Under the pieces are notes generated by a model that had not been told where the DNA came from, ran no database searches, and was given only the letters and a program-made list of their open reading frames with translations. Shown here one piece after another: positions 20,911 to 58,317 of a stretch of DNA of 64,000 nucleotides (position 1 is its first letter; every line of letters starts with the position of its first letter). Source of the stretch: Bacteroidales bacterium (GTDB taxonomy: Bacteria; Bacteroidota; Bacteroidia; Bacteroidales; VadinHA17). Made by a program: the position numbers and the translations under genes. The stretch spans positions 105,268 to 169,267 of the forward strand of contig DAOOUQ010000003.1 in the NCBI GenBank assembly GCA_035390825.1, written 5' to 3'.

Positions 20911-20924
20911 CAATATCGAATATG

Positions 20925-21000
20925 GGGTGCCTTAATACTACGGGCTGAGATCATACCCTGTCACCTGATCCGGGTAATGCCGGCGGAGGGAAATGAGAGG
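20925..21000 (+). promoter_or_regulatory. TPP (THI-box) riboswitch aptamer
   Basis: The sequence reads GGGGTGC...GGCTGAGA..ACCC....ACCTGATCCGGGTAATGCCGGCG.AGGGA. This matches the conserved TPP riboswitch core (CUGAGA, ACCUGAUCnGGnUAAUGCCnGCG, AGGGA). It lies 73 nt upstream of the TonB-dependent receptor ATG. The boundaries are approximate. Confidence 0.88.
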
Positions 21001-21072
21001 ATAATTATAAACAGCTGCTTAAGATTACGGTCCCATCTTCAACGGTTAATGATTTAATGACATTGACAGGCA

Positions 21073-45430: not shown

Positions 45431-47092
45431 TCAGGGTTCTTTTACTTCAAGGATCTGGTTCGCATTGATATTTTCCAGGGTCTGGGTTTTCCCTGAAGGC
45501 CATATTATTTCTATTTTATCTACAATCTGATTCTTGCCCAGTCCGAAATGGATTCTAGGATCATTTTGGGAGAGATAACCTGTTGTTGTTTTTCTCTGGG
45601 CCAACTGTGTTTTTCCTCCGGATGTAATCTTGATCCGTGCCCCGATTCCGTCCCTGTTGCCGGAAGTTCCGGTAAGGGACAGCATTATCCAGTTATTCTG
45701 GTTCCCCTTGTTGTTTCTAAGGAATGCGCAGTGACTGTTAAGGTTGACGACAAAAACATCCATGTCGCCGTCATTGTCATAGTCGCCTATACAGGCTCCG
45801 CGTCCGACAAATTCCTGGCTGAAGTACTTCCCCAGTTCAAGTGAAACATCCCTGAATTTTCCTCCACCTTCATTATGGAACATCTGATCTTCCTGACCGT
45901 AAAGATGCTTTAATGCACCGTTTGTCTTGAAGATATCAGCCAGACCGTCATTGTCGTAGTCTGTGAAGGTTGACGACCATCCGACAAACTGGGCGGCTGC
46001 AGATGAGATATTTGATGAGATGCCTTTATCGGAATAGATTCCGTTACCAACATTTTCGTATAAGGAGCAATATGTATCGTCTGAAACAAAGAGGTCAAGG
46101 AGTCCGTCCTCATTGAAATCAGCGAAATCTACCGACATGCTTACGGTTGCTTCCCCTGCCTGGCTGAAAGCGGTTCCCGACATTGTTCCCCTGTCGGTAA
46201 ATCCTTTTCCGCCATCGTTATGCCAGAGGTAGTTAAGGGTATGGTCATTTGCGACATATATGTCCACAAAGCCATCCTCGTCATAATCAGCGGCTCCCAC
46301 ACCCATTGCTCTTCCATCTGTATCCACGATGCCCATGCGGTCTGTGACATTTTCAAAAGTGCCATCGCCGTTATTATGATAAAGTATATCCTTTTGTGCA
46401 TCATAAGCCATAGGACCGGGGAAACCGTCGGGGGCATAGAAATACTTGTATTCGGGATCAAATGTCAGATAGTTGCCTACGTAAAGGTCGAGGTATGAGT
46501 CATTGTCGTAATCTAACCAGACGGCACCCACGCTGCATTCATTGCCACCTGACACACCCGCTTTTTTTGTAACATCTGAGAATGTGCCATTGCCGTTATT
46601 TTTGAGCAGAACGTTAGTCCCGTAATTACTAATGAAAAGGTCCGGGAATCCGTCATTATTGAAATCTCCTGCCACTGCACCCATACTATACCAGGGACCG
46701 TAGACGCCAGCTTTTTTCGACACATCTTCAAACGTCCCGTCACCCCTGTTATGGTAAAGATGATTGCCAGGCAAAACAGATGGTTTTTCCATTTTGCTAA
46801 CGCCATCGAGCCATGTTCCGCTGCAGGCATAAATGTCGATCCATCCGTCTTTGTCATAGTCAAAGAAAAGTGCACCGCCGCCAGTCGAGTAGATTATGTT
46901 CGTCAGTTCATCATCACCGATTGAGTGTGTGAAATCAAGTCCTATTTCCCGGCTTATTTCCTGGAAGTAGTCATTATTTGCAGGGGGAGCCGACAATTTG
47001 TTTGTACCAGCGGGGGAGTCATTACCTGACCGGCATCCGGAAACAAGGACCCCGGTCAAAGTAATCAAAAAGAAAAAACTTTTTAGTTGCAT
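45431..47092 (-). CDS. CRTAC1-family lipoprotein (FG-GAP/VCBS + ASPIC/UnbV)
   Basis: 553 aa with a lipobox (LVSGC) and DxDxDG loops (DYDKDGWIDIY, DFNNDGFPDLF, DYDEDGFVDIY, DYDNDGDMDVF). The ASPIC tail is NNWIMLSLTG...NDPRIHFGLG...IEIIWPSG. Confidence 0.85.
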   Translation of the reverse strand: MQLKSFFFLITLTGVLVSGCRSGNDSPAGTNKLSAPPANNDYFQEISREIGLDFTHSIGDDELTNIIYSTGGGALFFDYDKDGWIDIYACSGTWLDGVSKMEKPSVLPGNHLYHNRGDGTFEDVSKKAGVYGPWYSMGAVAGDFNNDGFPDLFISNYGTNVLLKNNGNGTFSDVTKKAGVSGGNECSVGAVWLDYDNDSYLDLYVGNYLTFDPEYKYFYAPDGFPGPMAYDAQKDILYHNNGDGTFENVTDRMGIVDTDGRAMGVGAADYDEDGFVDIYVANDHTLNYLWHNDGGKGFTDRGTMSGTAFSQAGEATVSMSVDFADFNEDGLLDLFVSDDTYCSLYENVGNGIYSDKGISSNISSAAAQFVGWSSTFTDYDNDGLADIFKTNGALKHLYGQEDQMFHNEGGGKFRDVSLELGKYFSQEFVGRGACIGDYDNDGDMDVFVVNLNSHCAFLRNNKGNQNNWIMLSLTGTSGNRDGIGARIKITSGGKTQLAQRKTTTGYLSQNDPRIHFGLGKNQIVDKIEIIWPSGKTQTLENINANQILEVKEP

Positions 47093-47220
47093 AACAGGTT
47101 TAATAGATTAAAGAGCCGGATATTCAAGAATGTTGAAAAATTCAATTAAAAACCAAAACCATCACATGTTGCCGCTTTTCTTTTTTTAGATTACCTGTCC
47201 AAAAGAGCAGCGGGAAACCA

Positions 47221-47252
47221 TTTATCTAACCTGTTTACCTTGAAATCTAACC
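47221..47252 (+). promoter_or_regulatory. Copy A of the recurring intergenic element CTAACCTGTTTACCTTGAAATCTAACC
   Basis: ACCTGTTTACCTTGAAAT (47229-47246) matches 58300-58317 at 16 of 18 positions. It shares CTAACCTGTTTA with 49826-49837 and CCTTGAAATC with 49672-49681. Confidence 0.4.
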
Positions 47253-47432
47253 TAAACAATTATAAAAATTAATTGTTAAATAAGTGTTAAAAGCAAATTA
47301 AAAGGCAATTAAAAATTAGGTTGGTTAAAAACACTGCAAGAAATTTGAATGGCTGTACCAGATTACAGGCGATGATAGCTGACAAAGCAATTTTGTCCGG
47401 GAATCTGGCAATCATGAAATACAGAACCCGGT

Positions 47433-48803
47433 TCATGCGGGAGAAGGAAGTGTTACAGTCACCGTGGTTCCTTTACCCGGTTTGGATTTGATTGTTATTT
47501 CACCATTGTGATTTTTTATAATCTGTCTTACAAGTGAAAGCCCTATACCTGTTCCCTGGATCAGTCTTGTATTTGAACCACGCTGAAATGGTTCAAAGAT
47601 TTTCTGGAGTTCATCCTCCGGTATCCCGATACCTTTATCCTTAAATACAAGTTCCATATTTTTTCCATTCGGGCCGAATCTTATATCAACTGTGTGATCA
47701 GCAGAGTATTTGCATGCATTTTCCATAATATTAATTATTGCCACCTTCAGAAGGCTGTCGTCACCGGCAATCATCATCTGTGAGGAATCCGTAAGAGAAT
47801 CGTTGATGGTTATATTTATGTGGTATGAAGGATTGAATTTCTTCAAATCATCACTTGCCTGCCAAACGACCTCATCAATGCTTACCTTCTTGTTATATCC
47901 TGAAGGCCCTTCAGCACTTGTCCTGGCGATAAGCAGCAATCTGTTTGAAAGGTTAATCAGCGATTTAATATCCTCCAGAACAGAATTGAGTGCATTTTTA
48001 TATTCCTCCGTGGTCCGGTCCTGCATCATCAGCACCTCTATCTGCCCGTGAACAGATGTGAGTGGTGTTCTGAGTTCATGCGAAGCATTTGATATGAAAT
48101 TTTTCTGCATGGCAAAGGATATTTCAAGTCTTTCGAGCATCCTGTTAAAGGTTTTTGCAAGACGTCCTATTTCATCTGCCCCGTTGCCTTCAGGAACTCT
48201 GAGGTTAAGGCTTGAGATGGAAATTTCATCAACCTTATTGACGACGTCTGATATAGGTTTAAGTGCCCTTCCCGAATAAAACCATCCTGCGACATAAAAC
48301 AAGACAAGACTAAGGAACCACACTATGAGCAGAATGAGTCCAAGCTTTTTAAGGTGTAACAGACCGTCGACATCCTGAGCTGCAGCCACTACAACAAAAG
48401 GAGTGTAATTTACAGTATACATCGTCCCGAGAACTTCATAGGCCCCCTGTTTATATCTGACGTTGATCTGTGACCTGATACGGTAAAGCAGATCGCCGGA
48501 TATCAGAATGTCGCCTGCAGGATCGGAGGTGTAAACAATATCATCCCTGCTGTTGAGTATTATTATCTTTTTGCGTGACAGGTTCGCGGGATTGTCATTT
48601 TCAATCATCCTTGCGAGGTTCTCATCAGGCTTGTAAGGGTTTAGAATCAGCCTGGCTGTGCTTCTCGACTGGCTTTTCAGGCGGTTGTAGAAATCCTCTT
48701 TCCTGAAATTTGAAGAGAAGTAATATATTGCCACCGAGGAGATAAGCATTATCAGGCCACCGAGGAGTATGAACTGAAGTGTCAGTCTGGTTCGTATCTG
48801 CAT
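47433..48803 (-). CDS. Sensor histidine kinase (two TM segments, HAMP, HisKA, HATPase_c)
   Basis: H-box SHELRTPLTS, N/G boxes (NIMENACKYS, GTGIGLSLV) and two N-terminal hydrophobic segments flanking a roughly 130-aa periplasmic loop. Confidence 0.9.
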   Translation of the reverse strand: MQIRTRLTLQFILLGGLIMLISSVAIYYFSSNFRKEDFYNRLKSQSRSTARLILNPYKPDENLARMIENDNPANLSRKKIIILNSRDDIVYTSDPAGDILISGDLLYRIRSQINVRYKQGAYEVLGTMYTVNYTPFVVVAAAQDVDGLLHLKKLGLILLIVWFLSLVLFYVAGWFYSGRALKPISDVVNKVDEISISSLNLRVPEGNGADEIGRLAKTFNRMLERLEISFAMQKNFISNASHELRTPLTSVHGQIEVLMMQDRTTEEYKNALNSVLEDIKSLINLSNRLLLIARTSAEGPSGYNKKVSIDEVVWQASDDLKKFNPSYHINITINDSLTDSSQMMIAGDDSLLKVAIINIMENACKYSADHTVDIRFGPNGKNMELVFKDKGIGIPEDELQKIFEPFQRGSNTRLIQGTGIGLSLVRQIIKNHNGEITIKSKPGKGTTVTVTLPSPA

Positions 48804-48814
48804 GCTACAAATGT

Positions 48815-48920
48815 ATTTCGGTATTCGGAATTGGGTACATTTCGGAGTTCGGATTTGAGATTTCGGATTTATCTGGTCGGAGGTATAATTCCGGAATCAC
48901 AATTCCGAAATCCGAAGTCT
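48815..48920. repeat. TTCGG(A/T)-rich direct and inverted repeat cluster in the RR-HK intercistronic spacer
   Basis: TTCGG occurs five times (48817, 48824, 48841, 48848, 48862) and CCGAA twice (48904, 48912). There is a palindrome TTCCGGAA (48888-48895). AGATTTCGGATTT (48858-48870) is complementary to AAATCCGAAGTCT (48908-48920) at 12 of 13 positions. Confidence 0.7.
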
Positions 48921-48923
48921 GAA

Positions 48924-49598
48924 TCAGTCTCCAAATATATATCCAAATCCTACTTTTGTCCTGATCAGCTTTTTATCAAATCCCTTGTCAATTTTTTTCC
49001 GCAGGAAGTTGACATAAACATCCACCACGTTTGTACTGAAATCAAAGCTTACATCCCAAACCTTTTCAGCGATGTCGTTTCTCGACAGTACCCTTCCGGG
49101 GTTCCTCATGAAATACTCGAGAAGAGAGAACTCCTTGGCAGTCAGGTTTATTACTGAGCCTCCCCTGCGTGCGGCTTTTTTATCGAGATCGAGTTCAAGG
49201 TCGCCGTAAGCAAGTCTTTTCAAAGTGTTATTCGAATGATCGGAGGTTTTCAGCAGGACCTTAACCCTTGCAAGCAGTTCCCTGAACTCAAAAGGTTTAA
49301 CAAGGTAATCATTGGCGCCTGCATCAAAACCTGCAAGCTTGTCGTCGGTTGTGCCCAGTGCAGTCAGCATTAGCACGGGGATGCCCGGATAAAGAGACTT
49401 GAACTTTTTGCAAAGTTCGAGACCGTTTGTACCTGGAATAATTATATCAAGTATAAAGAGATTGTATTTGTACTGTCGGGCTAGTTTGTCGGCAGAAATG
49501 CCATCGTAGGCTAAATCTGCCTCAAAGTGGCTTTCCTCAAGCCCTTTCTTGATAAAGGAGGCCACTTTCGGTTCATCTTCTACAATAAGGATTTTCAT
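48924..49598 (-). CDS. OmpR/PhoB-family response regulator (receiver + winged-helix DNA-binding domain)
   Basis: 224 aa with receiver motifs MKILIVEDE and LFILDIIIPG, and a Trans_reg_C tail (LTAKEFSLLEYFMRNPGRVLSRNDIAEKVW...IRTKVGFGY). Confidence 0.92.
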   Translation of the reverse strand: MKILIVEDEPKVASFIKKGLEESHFEADLAYDGISADKLARQYKYNLFILDIIIPGTNGLELCKKFKSLYPGIPVLMLTALGTTDDKLAGFDAGANDYLVKPFEFRELLARVKVLLKTSDHSNNTLKRLAYGDLELDLDKKAARRGGSVINLTAKEFSLLEYFMRNPGRVLSRNDIAEKVWDVSFDFSTNVVDVYVNFLRKKIDKGFDKKLIRTKVGFGYIFGD

Positions 49599-49768
49599 CT
49601 GGCACTAATATAACTTTGAACTGCATGTTGTAAGAAAATTGATTTATATCATTTGCTAAATATACATATATCCTTGAAATCCTCATAAACAAAGCCCGGG
49701 GAAGAAAGACAATATCACTTTTAACATAATTTTTCCCCGTATTTTCTTTAATGTTATTTTAATTTTAA

Positions 49769-49776
49769 TATCTTTG
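49769..49776 (+). promoter_or_regulatory. Candidate -7 box (TATCTTTG) for the SusC operon
   Basis: Matches the Bacteroides TAnnTTTG consensus 78 nt upstream of the SusC ATG. No clean -33 TTTG is seen. A second candidate, TAACTTTG, lies at 49611-49618. Confidence 0.3.
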
Positions 49777-49820
49777 AGATCAGATGAAGCAAGTTTTAGC
49801 TTGACTTTAATAATGACCAA

Positions 49821-49840
49821 TTTAACTAACCTGTTTAACC
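49821..49840 (+). promoter_or_regulatory. Copy B of the recurring element (TTTAACTAACCTGTTTAACC) in the SusC 5' leader
   Basis: ACCTGTTTAACC (49829-49840) is identical to 58300-58311 and ends 13 nt before the SusC ATG. Confidence 0.4.
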
Positions 49841-49853
49841 AAAACAAACGACT

Positions 49854-52800
49854 ATGCAAATTACTACAAAACTACGGCGTCTTACGCTGTTTTTGTTCAG
49901 TATGGTCATTTCCTCAGGCATAATTTTAGCACAGGAAAAGACCGTAACCGGGAAGGTCACCGCCGAAGGCGAGGGAGCAATCCCGGGTGTAAACGTTACA
50001 GTTCAGGGTACAACCATCGGTGCAATGACAGGTATGGACGGAACATATTCACTGAGGGTGCCGGGGCCGAACGCGGTTCTGGTCTTCTCTTCGGTAGGAT
50101 ATGTAACACAGGCCATAACCGTTGGTTCCCAAACCGTTATCAATGTCAGCCTGGTATCTGACGTTCAGGCACTCCAGGAAGTTGTCGTAACCGGTTATAC
50201 CCAGCAGAGAAGAAGGGACCTTACAGGTGCCATTGCAACAGTTGAACCTGCAAAACTGACCCAGGTTCCGACTCCAAACGTGAGTAATGCACTTCAGGGC
50301 CGTACTGCCGGTGTTACTGTTGTAGGCGACGGCCGGCCGGGAGAAACCTCAAAGGTCAGGATCAGGGGATTCAGCTCCTTCCAGAACAACGACCCTCTTT
50401 ATGTTGTTGACGGTGTGCCCACACAGGATATTTCCTCCCTGAACCCTGCAGACGTTGCTTCTGTATCCGTACTAAAGGATGCCGGTGCAGCTTCTGTTTA
50501 CGGATCAAGGGCATCGAACGGTGTTATAATCGTCACCACCAAAAAAGGCGGCACAGGAGCAAAAGTTACCTATAACATGTATTATGGAACTCAGGATCCG
50601 GGTAAAGGCCCCACCAACCTTCTGAATGCAAAAGAATATGCTGATCTGCAGTGGCTTGTTTATAAAAACGACGGCACCACTGAGGTTCATCCGATTTATG
50701 GCCCCTCAACAGCAGCAAGCCCCACGTTTCCCGAATGGGCAGCAGATACCGACTGGTACGATGCAATAACACATTTTGCACCAATTCAGAATCACGACCT
50801 TTCATTTTCAGCAGGAAACGAAAATTCGAAGTTTTTTGCCGGTCTTGGTGTAAACATGCAGGATGGGATTGTTATTTATACAGATGCCAAGAAGTTTACC
50901 GGGAGATTCAACTCTGAATTTACATTCCTTAACGGGAGAATCAAGGTAGGGGAGAACCTTTCTCTTGCATACCGCACTGGGCACGGTGTTTCCAACCTGA
51001 ACGAAGGAAGCCCGATCCAGGTGGCCTGTTATAGGGCCCAGCCGATTGTTCCGGTTGTGATGACAGTTGCCGTTCCTAACGGGGCCACTCATGCCTTTGT
51101 TCCCGGCGACTGGGGTGGAACTGGTATTGCTCCACGTCTTGGACAGGCCGGAAACGTAGTGGCCAACCAGACCCGGGGCAAGGATAACACAAACTGGAAC
51201 ATCCACCTTATTGGAAGCGCATTCATTGATATCAAATTGCTCCAGGGCCTGAACTTCAAATCGACTCTTGGCGGTACATTCGATAACGGAACATGGAACA
51301 GCTACTCATACAAGACATATGAAAATGCCGAGAATAACTCATCCAACTCATTCCAGGAAGAATCTTATTACGGGAATGACTGGGTATGGACGAACCAGCT
51401 GACTTTTGACAAAACCTTCGGCGACCATAAAATCCTGGCTGTTGCCGGATATGAGGCTGTTAAATATGGCATTGGCCGCGGTATCGGCGGAAGCAGGGCA
51501 TCATACTTCTCGGATGATGTTCTCTATCGAACCCTCAGCAACGGATCAAACATACTAAGTGCCTATGGCTGGCTCAATACACCGACCACCCTTGTATCAC
51601 AGTTCATAAGGACCGACTATTCGCTGATGGATAAATACATGATTAGCGCAACTGTACGTCGCGACGGATCTTCAAGGTTCGGTGCCGGCAACCGCTACGG
51701 GGTTTTCCCTTCCGCCTCTGTTGGCTGGAGGATCAAGAGCGAAAACTTCCTTGCCGATGTCACATGGCTTTCCGATCTCAAATTGAGGGCCTCCTGGGGT
51801 ACAATGGGTAACCAGCTTGCTGTATCTCCCATGAACCAGTTCTTTAACTATGGCGGAGATCCCGGATTATCATTCTATGACATCAACGGAACATTTACTT
51901 CCTCAGTACAGGGATTTGCTCCGACACGTATCGGTAATCCTGATGCAAAATGGGAAACCAACATTACAACAGATATTGGTTTTGAAGCTTCATTCCTTAA
52001 CAATAAGATAGGATTGAAATTCGACTGGTATTCAAAGAAAACAAAGGATCTCCTTTTTAATCCCGAAGTGCCTGGCACTGTAGGTGCTGCAGATGTACCC
52101 TATGTAAACGTTGCTTCAATGTCGAATACAGGTGTTGATATCGAAGTTTCGTACAGGAACCAGTGGGGCGATCTGGGATTCGACGGGAGCATTGTCGCAA
52201 CCACTTATAAGAACAATATTGATAAAATTGCCGAAGGGATCACCTTCTTTGATCCTTATAATGACGCTAATACCGCAAACAGGATCAATGGCGTTCCCGT
52301 ACGCAACATGGTTGGGCACCCGATGTCAGCATTCTTTGGCTATCATGTTCTTGGCTTGTTCCAGAGCCAGGCTGAGGTTGATGCTGCCCCCGAACAGTCG
52401 GGCGCTGAAGCAGGTTTCTTCCGCTTCGACGATACAAACGGTGACGGTAGTATAACTCCTGATGACAGGACATTCATTGGCAATCCCAACCCCAAATTCA
52501 CATACGGTGTTAACCTTGCCTTTACCTACAAAAACTTCGACCTGACAGCATTCCTTTACGGATCACAGGGTAACGATATCTTTAACTGGAACACATGGTG
52601 GGTCGATTTCTGGCCATCGTTCCAGGGACAGAAAAGCAAAAATGCCCTCTACAACAGCTGGACTCCGCAAAGAACAAATGCAACCACCCCGAAAGCATCC
52701 AACAAGTCTAATTTCTCGACAAATAACGAAATCAACGACTATTACATTGAAGATGGATCGTTCCTCCGTCTGAAAAACCTTCAGATCGGATATACAATTC

Positions 52801-58299: not shown

Positions 58300-58317
58300 A
58301 CCTGTTTAACCTGAAAT
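58300..58317 (+). promoter_or_regulatory. Copy C of the recurring element (ACCTGTTTAACCTGAAAT) in the FISUMP gene leader
   Basis: Matches 47229-47246 at 16 of 18 positions, and its first 12 nt are identical to 49829-49840. It ends 23 nt before the ATG at 58341. Confidence 0.4.

Follow-up and report, generated by a model that had tools for sequence, protein, structure and literature searches.

The window analysed here is a 64,000-nt stretch of the genome of a Bacteroidales bacterium (GTDB lineage VadinHA17; assembly GCA_035390825.1, contig DAOOUQ010000003.1, positions 105,268 to 169,267 of the forward strand). It carries a locus in which a CRTAC1-like gene and the two genes of a two-component system, all on the minus strand, lie opposite a susC and susD pair on the plus strand. 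Three intergenic sites of this locus, hereafter designated as copies A, B and C, share a motif that an earlier note, made from the sequence alone, had presented as one recurring element, compatible with tandem half-sites of an OmpR-type regulator or, in a second idea, with a control acting on translation at the RNA level. The observation itself is real, its statistical weight is modest, the first of these interpretations is unsupported, and the RNA-level idea is the best supported. Our tentative reading is that copy A acts as an RNA-level anti-start-site element, heading the leader of a neighbouring operon whose promoter would be driven by the regulator. The features on which this argument is built are as follows.

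45431-47092, minus strand: CRTAC1-like gene (Pfam FG-GAP_3 repeats and UnbV_ASPIC), the first gene after the array promoter
47090-47100, minus strand: start region of the CRTAC1-like gene, AACCTGTTATG, candidate pairing partner of AACAGGUU from copy A
47093-47252, minus strand: predicted 5' leader of the CRTAC1-like gene, about 155-160 nt, with a 5' block predicted to pair with its own start region
47217-47239, minus strand: extended likeness between copy A and the susC leader, ACCATTTATCTAACCTGTTTACC against ACCAATTTAACTAACCTGTTTAACC, 22/25 positions
47229-47246: copy A, ACCTGTTTACCTTGAAAT on the plus strand and AUUUCAAGGUAAACAGGU on the minus strand, proposed anti-start-site block (directed against translation initiation regions)
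47257-47264, minus strand: -7 box TATAATTG, exactly 10 nt past the last heptad
47275-47314, minus strand: heptad array of four 7-nt direct repeats, starting at 47275, 47286, 47297 and 47308
47433-48803, minus strand: sensor histidine kinase (Pfam HAMP, HisKA and HATPase_c)
48924-49598, minus strand: response regulator of the OmpR/PhoB family (Pfam Response_reg and Trans_reg_C)
49672-49681, plus strand: second copy of CCTTGAAATC, judged a chance match
49769-49776, plus strand: -7 box of susC, TATCTTTG, conserved in orthologues, about 50 nt upstream of the leader block that follows
49816-49853, plus strand: susC 5' leader and start region, containing copy B, with the conserved block AACTAAC-TGTTTAA-AAAAC-GACTATG
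49829-49840, plus strand: copy B, ACCTGTTTAACC, with CTA directly before it, within the susC 5' leader
49854 onward, plus strand: susC, then susD (Pfam)
58300-58317, plus strand: copy C, ACCTGTTTAACCTGAAAT, in the 55-nt spacer ahead of a Fib_succ_major (FISUMP) gene

The gene calls of the locus were confirmed by Pfam, which also identified downstream of susC and susD two proteins of about 1100 amino acids with FG-GAP and ASPIC domains, flanking the Fib_succ_major gene. Behind the CRTAC1-like gene lies what we take to be an HZS-like haem-enzyme operon. When the window sequence was read again, the coordinates and letters of copies A, B and C all proved correct, as did the 13 and 23 nt separating copies B and C from their respective ATG, the position of the core AACCTGTT directly against the ATG of the CRTAC1-like gene (47093-47100, minus strand) and the recurrence of CCTTGAAATC at 49672-49681. 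This last sequence was nevertheless rejected as a part of the element, since it has 18 copies in the genome and its order relative to the core differs from that of copy A. The TAACC repeats, described as 9-10 nt apart, have a spacing of 9 nt in copies B and C but of 21 nt in copy A. The likeness between copies A and B extends past the motif as first delimited, with 22 of 25 positions shared by 47217-47239 and 49816-49840, and a minus-strand RNA over the former segment is complementary to positions -38 to -14 of susC. Copies A, B and C are sites of different kinds.

Much of the motif consists of words that are common in the leaders of this genome. The words CTAACC, ACTAAC, AACCTAA and TTAACCAA are enriched genome-wide directly ahead of start codons, with a marked bias towards the sense strand (29 sense against 4 antisense occurrences for CTAACC, and 18 against 2 for AACTAAC) and start positions that peak sharply 17-24 nt before the ATG. 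Their location follows the ATG, not the -7 promoter box. Among the full-length SusC-like genes, 11 of 13 have a leader word at -32 to -12, compared with about 4% of the other genes (Fisher 7e-14), and exported proteins are likewise enriched for these words. The flanks of the motif (CTAACC... and ...TTTAACC) are generic leader words of this type, and its sole specific part is CCTGTTT, which shows no enrichment in leaders. Counted from the predicted transcription start, copy B lies about 55 nt inside a susC 5' leader of about 70 nt and, judged by its letters, is the ordinary conserved susC leader, built from leader words (CTAACC, ACTAAC and TTAACCAA). The words themselves may represent a candidate lineage-specific translation or targeting signal. 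A local instance of these C/A-rich words covers window positions 49826-49846, and in several SusC-like genes on contigs C2 and C9 CTAACC occurs 6-9 nt past the -7 box, at the head of long leaders.

The conservation of the locus was assessed in nine loci, namely the window, seven genomes of the same genus (given below by their G numbers) and one metagenome contig (L032). A metagenome scan with the regulator alignment returned 80 loci, among which L032 was the one true orthologue with both spacers, L033 being too short and the remainder being paralogous two-component systems. In G011 and G020, the locus is divided between two contigs. The shared synteny comprises an HZS-alpha-like gene, the CRTAC1-like gene, the kinase and the regulator and, divergently, susC, susD and a CRTAC1-like gene, with the Fib_succ_major gene coming next in 4 of the seven same-genus genomes, and the SusC proteins are 62-77% identical between clades. 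From about -30 to +12, the susC leader is kept in all nine loci (AACTAAC-TGTTTAA-AAAAC-GACTATGCAAAT), its unchanging parts being the leader words and the start region. The core within this leader occurs in several variants, including CCTGTTT (three genomes), CATGTTT (twice), CCTTTTT, AATGTTT, CTTCTTT and CTTGTGA; the AAC-N2-GTT core of copy B is kept in 5/9 loci, in three of them as an exact AACCTGTT, and is degenerate in the other 4/9. An A-like AACCTGTT is present in 4/9 loci and degenerate forms in two more. Copy A takes forms such as AACCTGTTTACC or TAACCTGTTAAC in G005, G011 and G020 (twice) and is degenerate in G014, and the spacers of G016 and G023 contain other susC-like segments instead. 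Copy C was absent from the corresponding spacer in each of the four genomes compared (G011, G014, G005 and G012) and is, by this comparison, specific to the window genome.

The best-conserved feature of the spacer that contains copy A is the heptad array, which was absent from the earlier note, the flanking spacer being otherwise unalignable between clades. On the plus strand, its four heptads read GTTAAAT, GTTAAAA, ATTAAAA and ATTAAAA (TTTTAAT-type on the minus strand), with the consensus [AG]TTAA[AT]N and a period of exactly 11 nt, corresponding to 4-nt spacers. The same geometry, with four heptads, a 10-nt gap and the position of the box, was observed in 9/9 loci. A box of the form TAnn[A/T/C]TT[G/A] occupies this position in 8/9 loci (TAATATTG twice, TATATTTA, TAAACTTG, TACCATTG, TATCATTG and TAACATTG outside the window), with a weaker TATATTAA in the ninth (G012). 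The housekeeping promoter consensus of Bacteroides is TAnnTTTG (PMC7366714). A scan for sigma-70-type promoters gave nothing usable, such a scan being uninformative for Bacteroidota. Transcription of the minus strand is predicted to start at about 47252-47248, 5-9 nt past the box, and the array promoter is proposed to drive the CRTAC1-like gene together with the HZS-like operon behind it.

Seven-nucleotide direct repeats separated by 4-nt spacers and ending 10 nt before the downstream promoter element are the classical geometry of the pho box. The heptad array, and not the noted motif, shares this geometry with the PhoB class II sites, including repeats that replace the upstream promoter element and end 10 nt before the promoter hexamer or octamer, but it differs from the pho box in the sequence of its repeat (TTTTAAT against CTGTCAT), in its four repeats and in the type of the neighbouring regulator, which is nearest to CusR/CopR and not to PhoB. 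The best NCBIfam model for the response regulator was cztR_silR_copR, with 226.7 bits against a cut-off of 279.2, PhoB reaching 176 bits against a cut-off of 296, and the nearest NCBIfam family for the kinase was the heavy-metal sensor kinase subfamily, also below its cut-off. Both proteins are nearest to the heavy-metal CusRS/CopRS/CzcRS models, all below cut-offs, and a metal- or redox-type signal is conceivable for a locus beside a haem-enzyme operon. Based on adjacency and promoter architecture, the array is a probable site of the adjacent response regulator, which would bind the heptads, and a better candidate than the noted motif, which is probably not the docking site of this protein.

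Gene-oriented arrays of three heptads are restricted in this genome to the present promoter, a SusC/CRTAC1 locus on contig C5 (C5:53594-53630) and one weak site, and an irregular array is found at another SusC/CRTAC1 locus on contig C14 (C14:68634-68690), a distribution in keeping with a plausible regulon. No other two-component system was found on contigs C5 and C14. The sequence TAACCTGTT lies at C14:68701-68709, about 20 nt past the heptad array of the C14 susC promoter, and CTAACCTGGTT at C5:53653-53663, 9 nt past the -7 box of the C5 promoter. A search for orthologues of the C14 locus returned a single match, 58% identical and from another family, without the array and without TAACCTGTT. 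Heptads also occur between the regulator gene and susC. In L032 and in G012 (locus L027), this region contains a second, ATTAAAA-type array facing the regulator gene, which would fit an autoregulation of the two-component operon. The window, G011 and G005 instead have a pair of TTTTAAT heptads in this region, which stop 5 nt short of the susC -7 box.

With the minus-strand start predicted at about 47252-47248, copy A would occupy positions +2 to +20, approximately, of the minus-strand RNA (...AGAUUUCAAGGUAAACAGGUUAGAU), beginning 2-6 nt past the start site. For the window, G005 and G011, the block GGTAAACAGGTT is located 20-21 nt past the -7 box, and the remaining leader is unalignable. Complementarity to susC, in trans, was evaluated by comparing the leader region with the start region of the susC gene of the same genome. 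The plus strand of the leader region resembles this start region in the same sense, with p values of at most 0.013 in 6/8 genomes and of about 0.06 in the other two, one of which (G012) is without an A-like block, and the opposite-sense likeness was never significant in these eight genomes. The match extends to 41 columns in G020, including the ATG and the first codons, and to 22/25 columns in G016, and the part of the susC start region that is matched differs between clades. In the window genome, the RNA over copy A would form 12 perfect pairs with the susC leader, within the 22/25 overall, and the predicted duplex with the susC start region (-27 kcal/mol) ranks 6 of 2630 start regions; by similarity, susC ranks 2 and the FISUMP start region, which carries copy C, ranks 11. 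With a length of 17-41 nt and a clade-dependent position, the susC likeness is too long for a protein-binding site.

The second predicted partner of copy A, in cis, is the start region of its own transcript. The CRTAC1-like start region contains AACCTGT(T/C)ATG in the window, G005 and G011, and both the minimum free energy and the centroid structures given by RNAfold show the 5' block closing onto it, with pair probabilities near 1 in the window, G005, G011 and G023. In G016 and G020, the start region is predicted to pair somewhat less strongly, within the 5' 130 nt, and the partner in G020 is the anti-susC segment GCAUAGUCAGG. Sequestration of the start region is predicted in 6/7 genomes with a long leader. 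When the 5' block was shuffled, p values of 0.05 (window), 0.08 (G005), 0.03 (G011) and 0.10 (G023) were obtained, and among 925 comparable upstream regions of the genome the window comes 13th by its cis-pairing score; the complementarity in cis was accordingly judged to exceed chance. The paired segments vary by clade (AACAGGUU/AACCUGUU against GCAUAGUCAGG/CCUGACGAUG), in a set of few sequences that are not column-alignable. A count by eye gave about 11 instances of the reversed leader word AGGTTA over about 1050 nt of leader sequence from these loci, against an intergenic background of 3.4e-4 per nt, and reversed leader words are about 30-fold over background.

Translation starts in Bacteroidota generally do not use a Shine-Dalgarno sequence, and what the helix would mask is therefore the A/C-rich leader word together with the AUG. 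In the mechanism that we propose, copy A would be a susC-leader-type sequence placed backwards, just past the start of the minus-strand transcript, and the RNA over it (...GGUAAACAGGUUAGAU...) would pair with start regions carrying leader words. Its partner in cis would be its own CRTAC1-like start region (AACCUGUUAUG), and its partners in trans the susC start region and, in the window genome only, that of the FISUMP gene (copy C). By closing the leader onto the CRTAC1-like start codon, the 5' block could exert translational control, and the outcome of pairing with the susC leader could be repression of susC or, alternatively, release of the CRTAC1 start region. The second idea of the earlier note, an RNA-level action on translation, is thus the one we favour, in the more specific form of an anti-start-site block within an operon leader.

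A more far-reaching version of this mechanism, which we consider rather improbable, would make the HZS-like operon leader a regulatory RNA in itself, with a 5' end pairing with the susC leaders of three SusC/SusD/CRTAC1 loci. The contiguous pairs between this 5' end and the susC leaders number 12 for C3, 10 for C14 and 8 for C5. Transcribed from a promoter under the control of the two-component system, the leader would engage either a susC leader or the helix masking the start codon of its own operon, the two being mutually exclusive, and the uptake genes and the enzyme operon would be coupled by mRNA-mRNA contact, without any dedicated small RNA.

Several observations argue against the anti-start-site block. 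In a matrix of own and foreign susC start regions, the diagonal has a p value of about 0.04 that is confounded by phylogeny, the spacer copies match the susC start regions of other genomes about as well as their own, and the susC copy of G005 has a G-to-T change that is not followed by copy A. Whole leaders do not fold more stably than shuffled sequences (z of +0.84 and -0.23), so that the specific long-range helix alone stands out, and helices rich in A and U are readily predicted. Cis pairing is absent from the fold of G014, where AAACAGG is engaged in a local hairpin followed by a U-run. G012 and L032 keep the array and the box with leaders of 50-60 nt that have no A-like block, so that the A element is dispensable, an optional add-on present in 7/9 loci. 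Copies A and B were moreover chosen post hoc in the window genome, and the start site, strand and 3' end of the leader RNA are predictions.

The closest functional parallel is provided by two kinds of small RNA from Bacteroides thetaiotaomicron, GibS and the FopS family, which have the 5' seed GUGUUUUUCAUAGUAUUAG. The 5' end of FopS pairs with susC translation initiation regions, thereby blocking translation, a block that is relieved by RbpB (PMC11697453). The A element is comparable to FopS and GibS in the single-stranded 5' stretch antisense to susC translation initiation regions, here predicted over copy A, and in a complementarity that includes the start codon in G016 and G020 (AUUUGCAUAGUCAG). 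It differs from them in being a single copy, as opposed to a multicopy family, without sequence or Rfam homology, in heading an operon leader with a regulator-type promoter and no canonical intrinsic terminator in the window, and in its additional complementarity to the start region of its own downstream gene. By analogy, the A element is perhaps similar in function to FopS and GibS, and not homologous to them. Rfam searches gave no FopS or GibS match at gathering score in the window and none up to E=10 in 46900-50000. A search for a multicopy family with GGTTAG-type seeds revealed no paralogues, nearly all intergenic matches being the reverse strand of ordinary leaders, and a GGTTAG-type cluster at about position 136440 of contig C1 was rejected as the leader of a short open reading frame. 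No terminator-like site was found in the window on the minus strand of the CRTAC1-kinase spacer, a terminator-like hairpin with a U-run being found in G014 alone. In this genome (locus L022), AAACAGG on the minus strand of the spacer pairs with CCTGTTT after a GGUUAG-type seed and is followed by UUUUUCUUUU, an arrangement that looks like a small RNA of about 85 nt with an intrinsic terminator.

Two other classes of regulators show partial likeness to the A element. DonS-type RNAs are cis-antisense RNAs encoded divergently to a susC homologue in polysaccharide utilization loci (PULs) (PMC7366714). They share with the predicted leader the feature of an antisense RNA within a PUL-like locus that would be directed against susC expression, but a distance of 2.6 kb, which includes the two-component genes, separates copy A from susC, on which it could act only in trans. 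Leader locks acting in cis, such as RNA thermometers, are alike in that a remote part of the leader is paired with the start region of its own mRNA, start codon included. Here, in contrast, the masked segment would be an A/C-rich leader word with the AUG, the predicted helix closes a variable loop of 150-330 nt, and no conserved ligand-binding core is present.

The extent to which the motif exceeds chance was evaluated against the 3.48-Mb, 57-contig assembly that contains the window. The earlier note had argued that a specific 12-mer is expected far less than once in 64 kb. Genome-wide, ACCTGTTTAACC occurs three times, as copies B and C and one copy judged to lie within a gene, ACCTGTTTACC also three times, as copy A and two copies judged to lie within genes, and CCTTGAAATC 18 times, mostly within genes. 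That argument holds for a pre-specified word; the fair question is whether any word is shared, and significance is only partly supported. Some 12-mer is common to 162 neighbouring pairs of intergenic regions in the genome, and 9-mers common to at least three nearby spacers number 151 in the real genome against about 43 in shuffled ones. A strict pattern, in which three spacers share a 9-mer and two of the pairs match over at least 12 nt, was found at three loci (two true repeats and the present locus) against 0.35 loci expected in shuffled sequences, corresponding to a chance of about 0.006 per window and about 0.3 per genome. The triple is unusual for one window and not for a whole genome, and these statistics alone do not settle the matter. 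The core AACCTGTT has an intergenic to coding density ratio of 0.79, with no intergenic enrichment; a similar density in coding and intergenic DNA had been named beforehand as an outcome that would speak against the element. The proposed enrichment near CRTAC1 and SusC genes is borne out in part by TAACCTGTT, whose nine intergenic copies include three at such loci (copy A, copy B and the promoter of the second SusC/SusD/CRTAC1 locus on contig C14), the third SusC/SusD/CRTAC1 locus on contig C5 having CTAACCTGGTT, but not by the core with its ratio of 0.79.

That there is no dedicated function, copy B being a plain susC leader, copy C a product of chance or of the leader words, and copy A a decaying relic of a susC 5'-end duplication or a promoter-proximal by-product, is the most serious of the alternatives and is in our opinion somewhat unlikely. 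It would account for a triple of which shuffles predict 0.35 cases per genome, or more if leader words are allowed for, for the lack of conservation of copy C, for the two loci entirely without the block, and for the different parts of the susC-like segment kept by different clades, as would be expected from a decaying relic; clear co-variation was not seen, and an unrelated leader (C25, 8469-8835) matches the susC start region as well as copy A does. A mere relic is less readily reconciled with a susC-like segment that persists in 7/9 loci, always in the same orientation, within spacers otherwise unalignable between clades, with its fixed distance from the promoter in three genomes, with the pairing to its own start region predicted in 6/7 long leaders and with the excess of reversed leader words. 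A DNA operator, in which AACCTGTT/AACAGGTT with the inverted repeat AAC-N2-GTT would be bound by a dimeric transcription factor, or secondarily by the response regulator, and would serve as a roadblock or repressor within the part of array promoters that is transcribed first and, at copy B, inside the susC leader, seems unlikely. Such a palindromic core would explain the differing orientation of the sites, and it lies about 12-21 nt past the -7-like box in three array promoters, those of the CRTAC1-like gene (inverted), of the C14 susC gene (TAACCTGTT) and of the C5 locus (CTAACCTGGTT). The scarcity of intergenic TAACCTGTT, three of whose copies are A, B and the C14 promoter, and the perfect TTAAC-CT-GTTAA of copy A in G011 also fit an operator. 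Yet G014, G016, G020, G023, G012 and L032 have no AAC-N2-GTT less than about 30 nt from the box, a single subclade thus keeping it near the promoter, the core is lost in 4/9 susC leaders, palindromy past 3+3 nt is not conserved, AACCTGTT lacks intergenic enrichment, and a likeness of 17-41 nt that shifts between clades is unlike a fixed operator.

Two further explanations, both derived from the earlier note, now appear very improbable. According to the one that it had put first, the TAACC repeats of copies A, B and C (ACCTGTTTA(A)CC) are tandem half-sites of the adjacent OmpR-type regulator, for which speak the 9-nt spacing in copies B and C and the presence of all copies in one locus beside a two-component system. 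The sites were however found to lack both the 10-11 bp period of 6-7 bp repeats and the position upstream of a promoter: the copies lie downstream of predicted promoters (copy B at about +55, copy A at +2 to +20) or, for copy C, in an intercistronic spacer, and in copy A the spacing is 21 nt. TAACC-type words are strand-specific and fixed to start codons genome-wide, in 118 genes including the 11/13 SusC-like genes, copy C is not conserved, and the heptad array fits a regulator site far better. According to the other, which is no more credible, copy A belongs to a plus-strand transcript in the spacer, whether as part of a small RNA, as an imitation of the susC leader or ahead of a very short open reading frame. 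Copy A does resemble a normal leader on the plus strand, and in G016, G020 and G023 the susC-like segment ends in an ATG with a frame of 10-14 codons. These short frames vary in length and sequence, the window, G005 and G011 have none of them, and no -7 box or other conserved block was found upstream of copy A on the plus strand, the conserved promoter pointing in the opposite direction and crossing copy A on the minus strand; the view of copy A as the mark of such a transcript was therefore not upheld. A small open reading frame behind copy A was likewise rejected as a candidate, frames of 10-15 codons being found in some genomes and not conserved.

To our knowledge, Shine-Dalgarno-independent control of translation and post-transcriptional tuning of SusC loci are documented almost only from gut Bacteroides (FopS, GibS, DonS and RbpB). 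Should the anti-start-site reading be true, an uncultured environmental Bacteroidales genus would use the same logic of antisense pairing to susC-type start regions, with an antisense element built into the leader of a neighbouring operon and not carried by a free-standing small RNA. A concrete regulatory map would then be available, in which a pho-box-like array links a two-component system to a recently described HZS-like operon, and the leader words of 11/13 SusC-like genes would become a candidate translation or targeting signal. If it is wrong, what is left is a conserved leader of the ordinary kind, together with look-alikes.

Some minor observations were made in the vicinity of copy A and elsewhere in the window. 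A 17-nt sequence beside copy A, AAATCTAACCTAAACAA (47243-47259), recurs identically in the leader of an unrelated gene (C24:40213-41970, minus strand), where it spans -33 to -17. This gene encodes an exported protein of 585 amino acids, and its start region was top-ranked of 2630; the 17-nt sequence partly overlaps the -7 box, and only about 11 nt of it would be transcribed. In G005, both the CRTAC1-kinase spacer and the spacer ahead of the Fib_succ_major gene contain inserted hairpins made of G-runs and C-runs (e.g., CCCCCTAAAGGGGG and GGGGGAAGGAG...CCCCCC), which look like members of a small family of repeated palindromic elements. The only Rfam match at gathering score in the whole window was a TPP riboswitch (RF00059, 56.4 bits, above gathering score) at 20913-21008, away from the locus.

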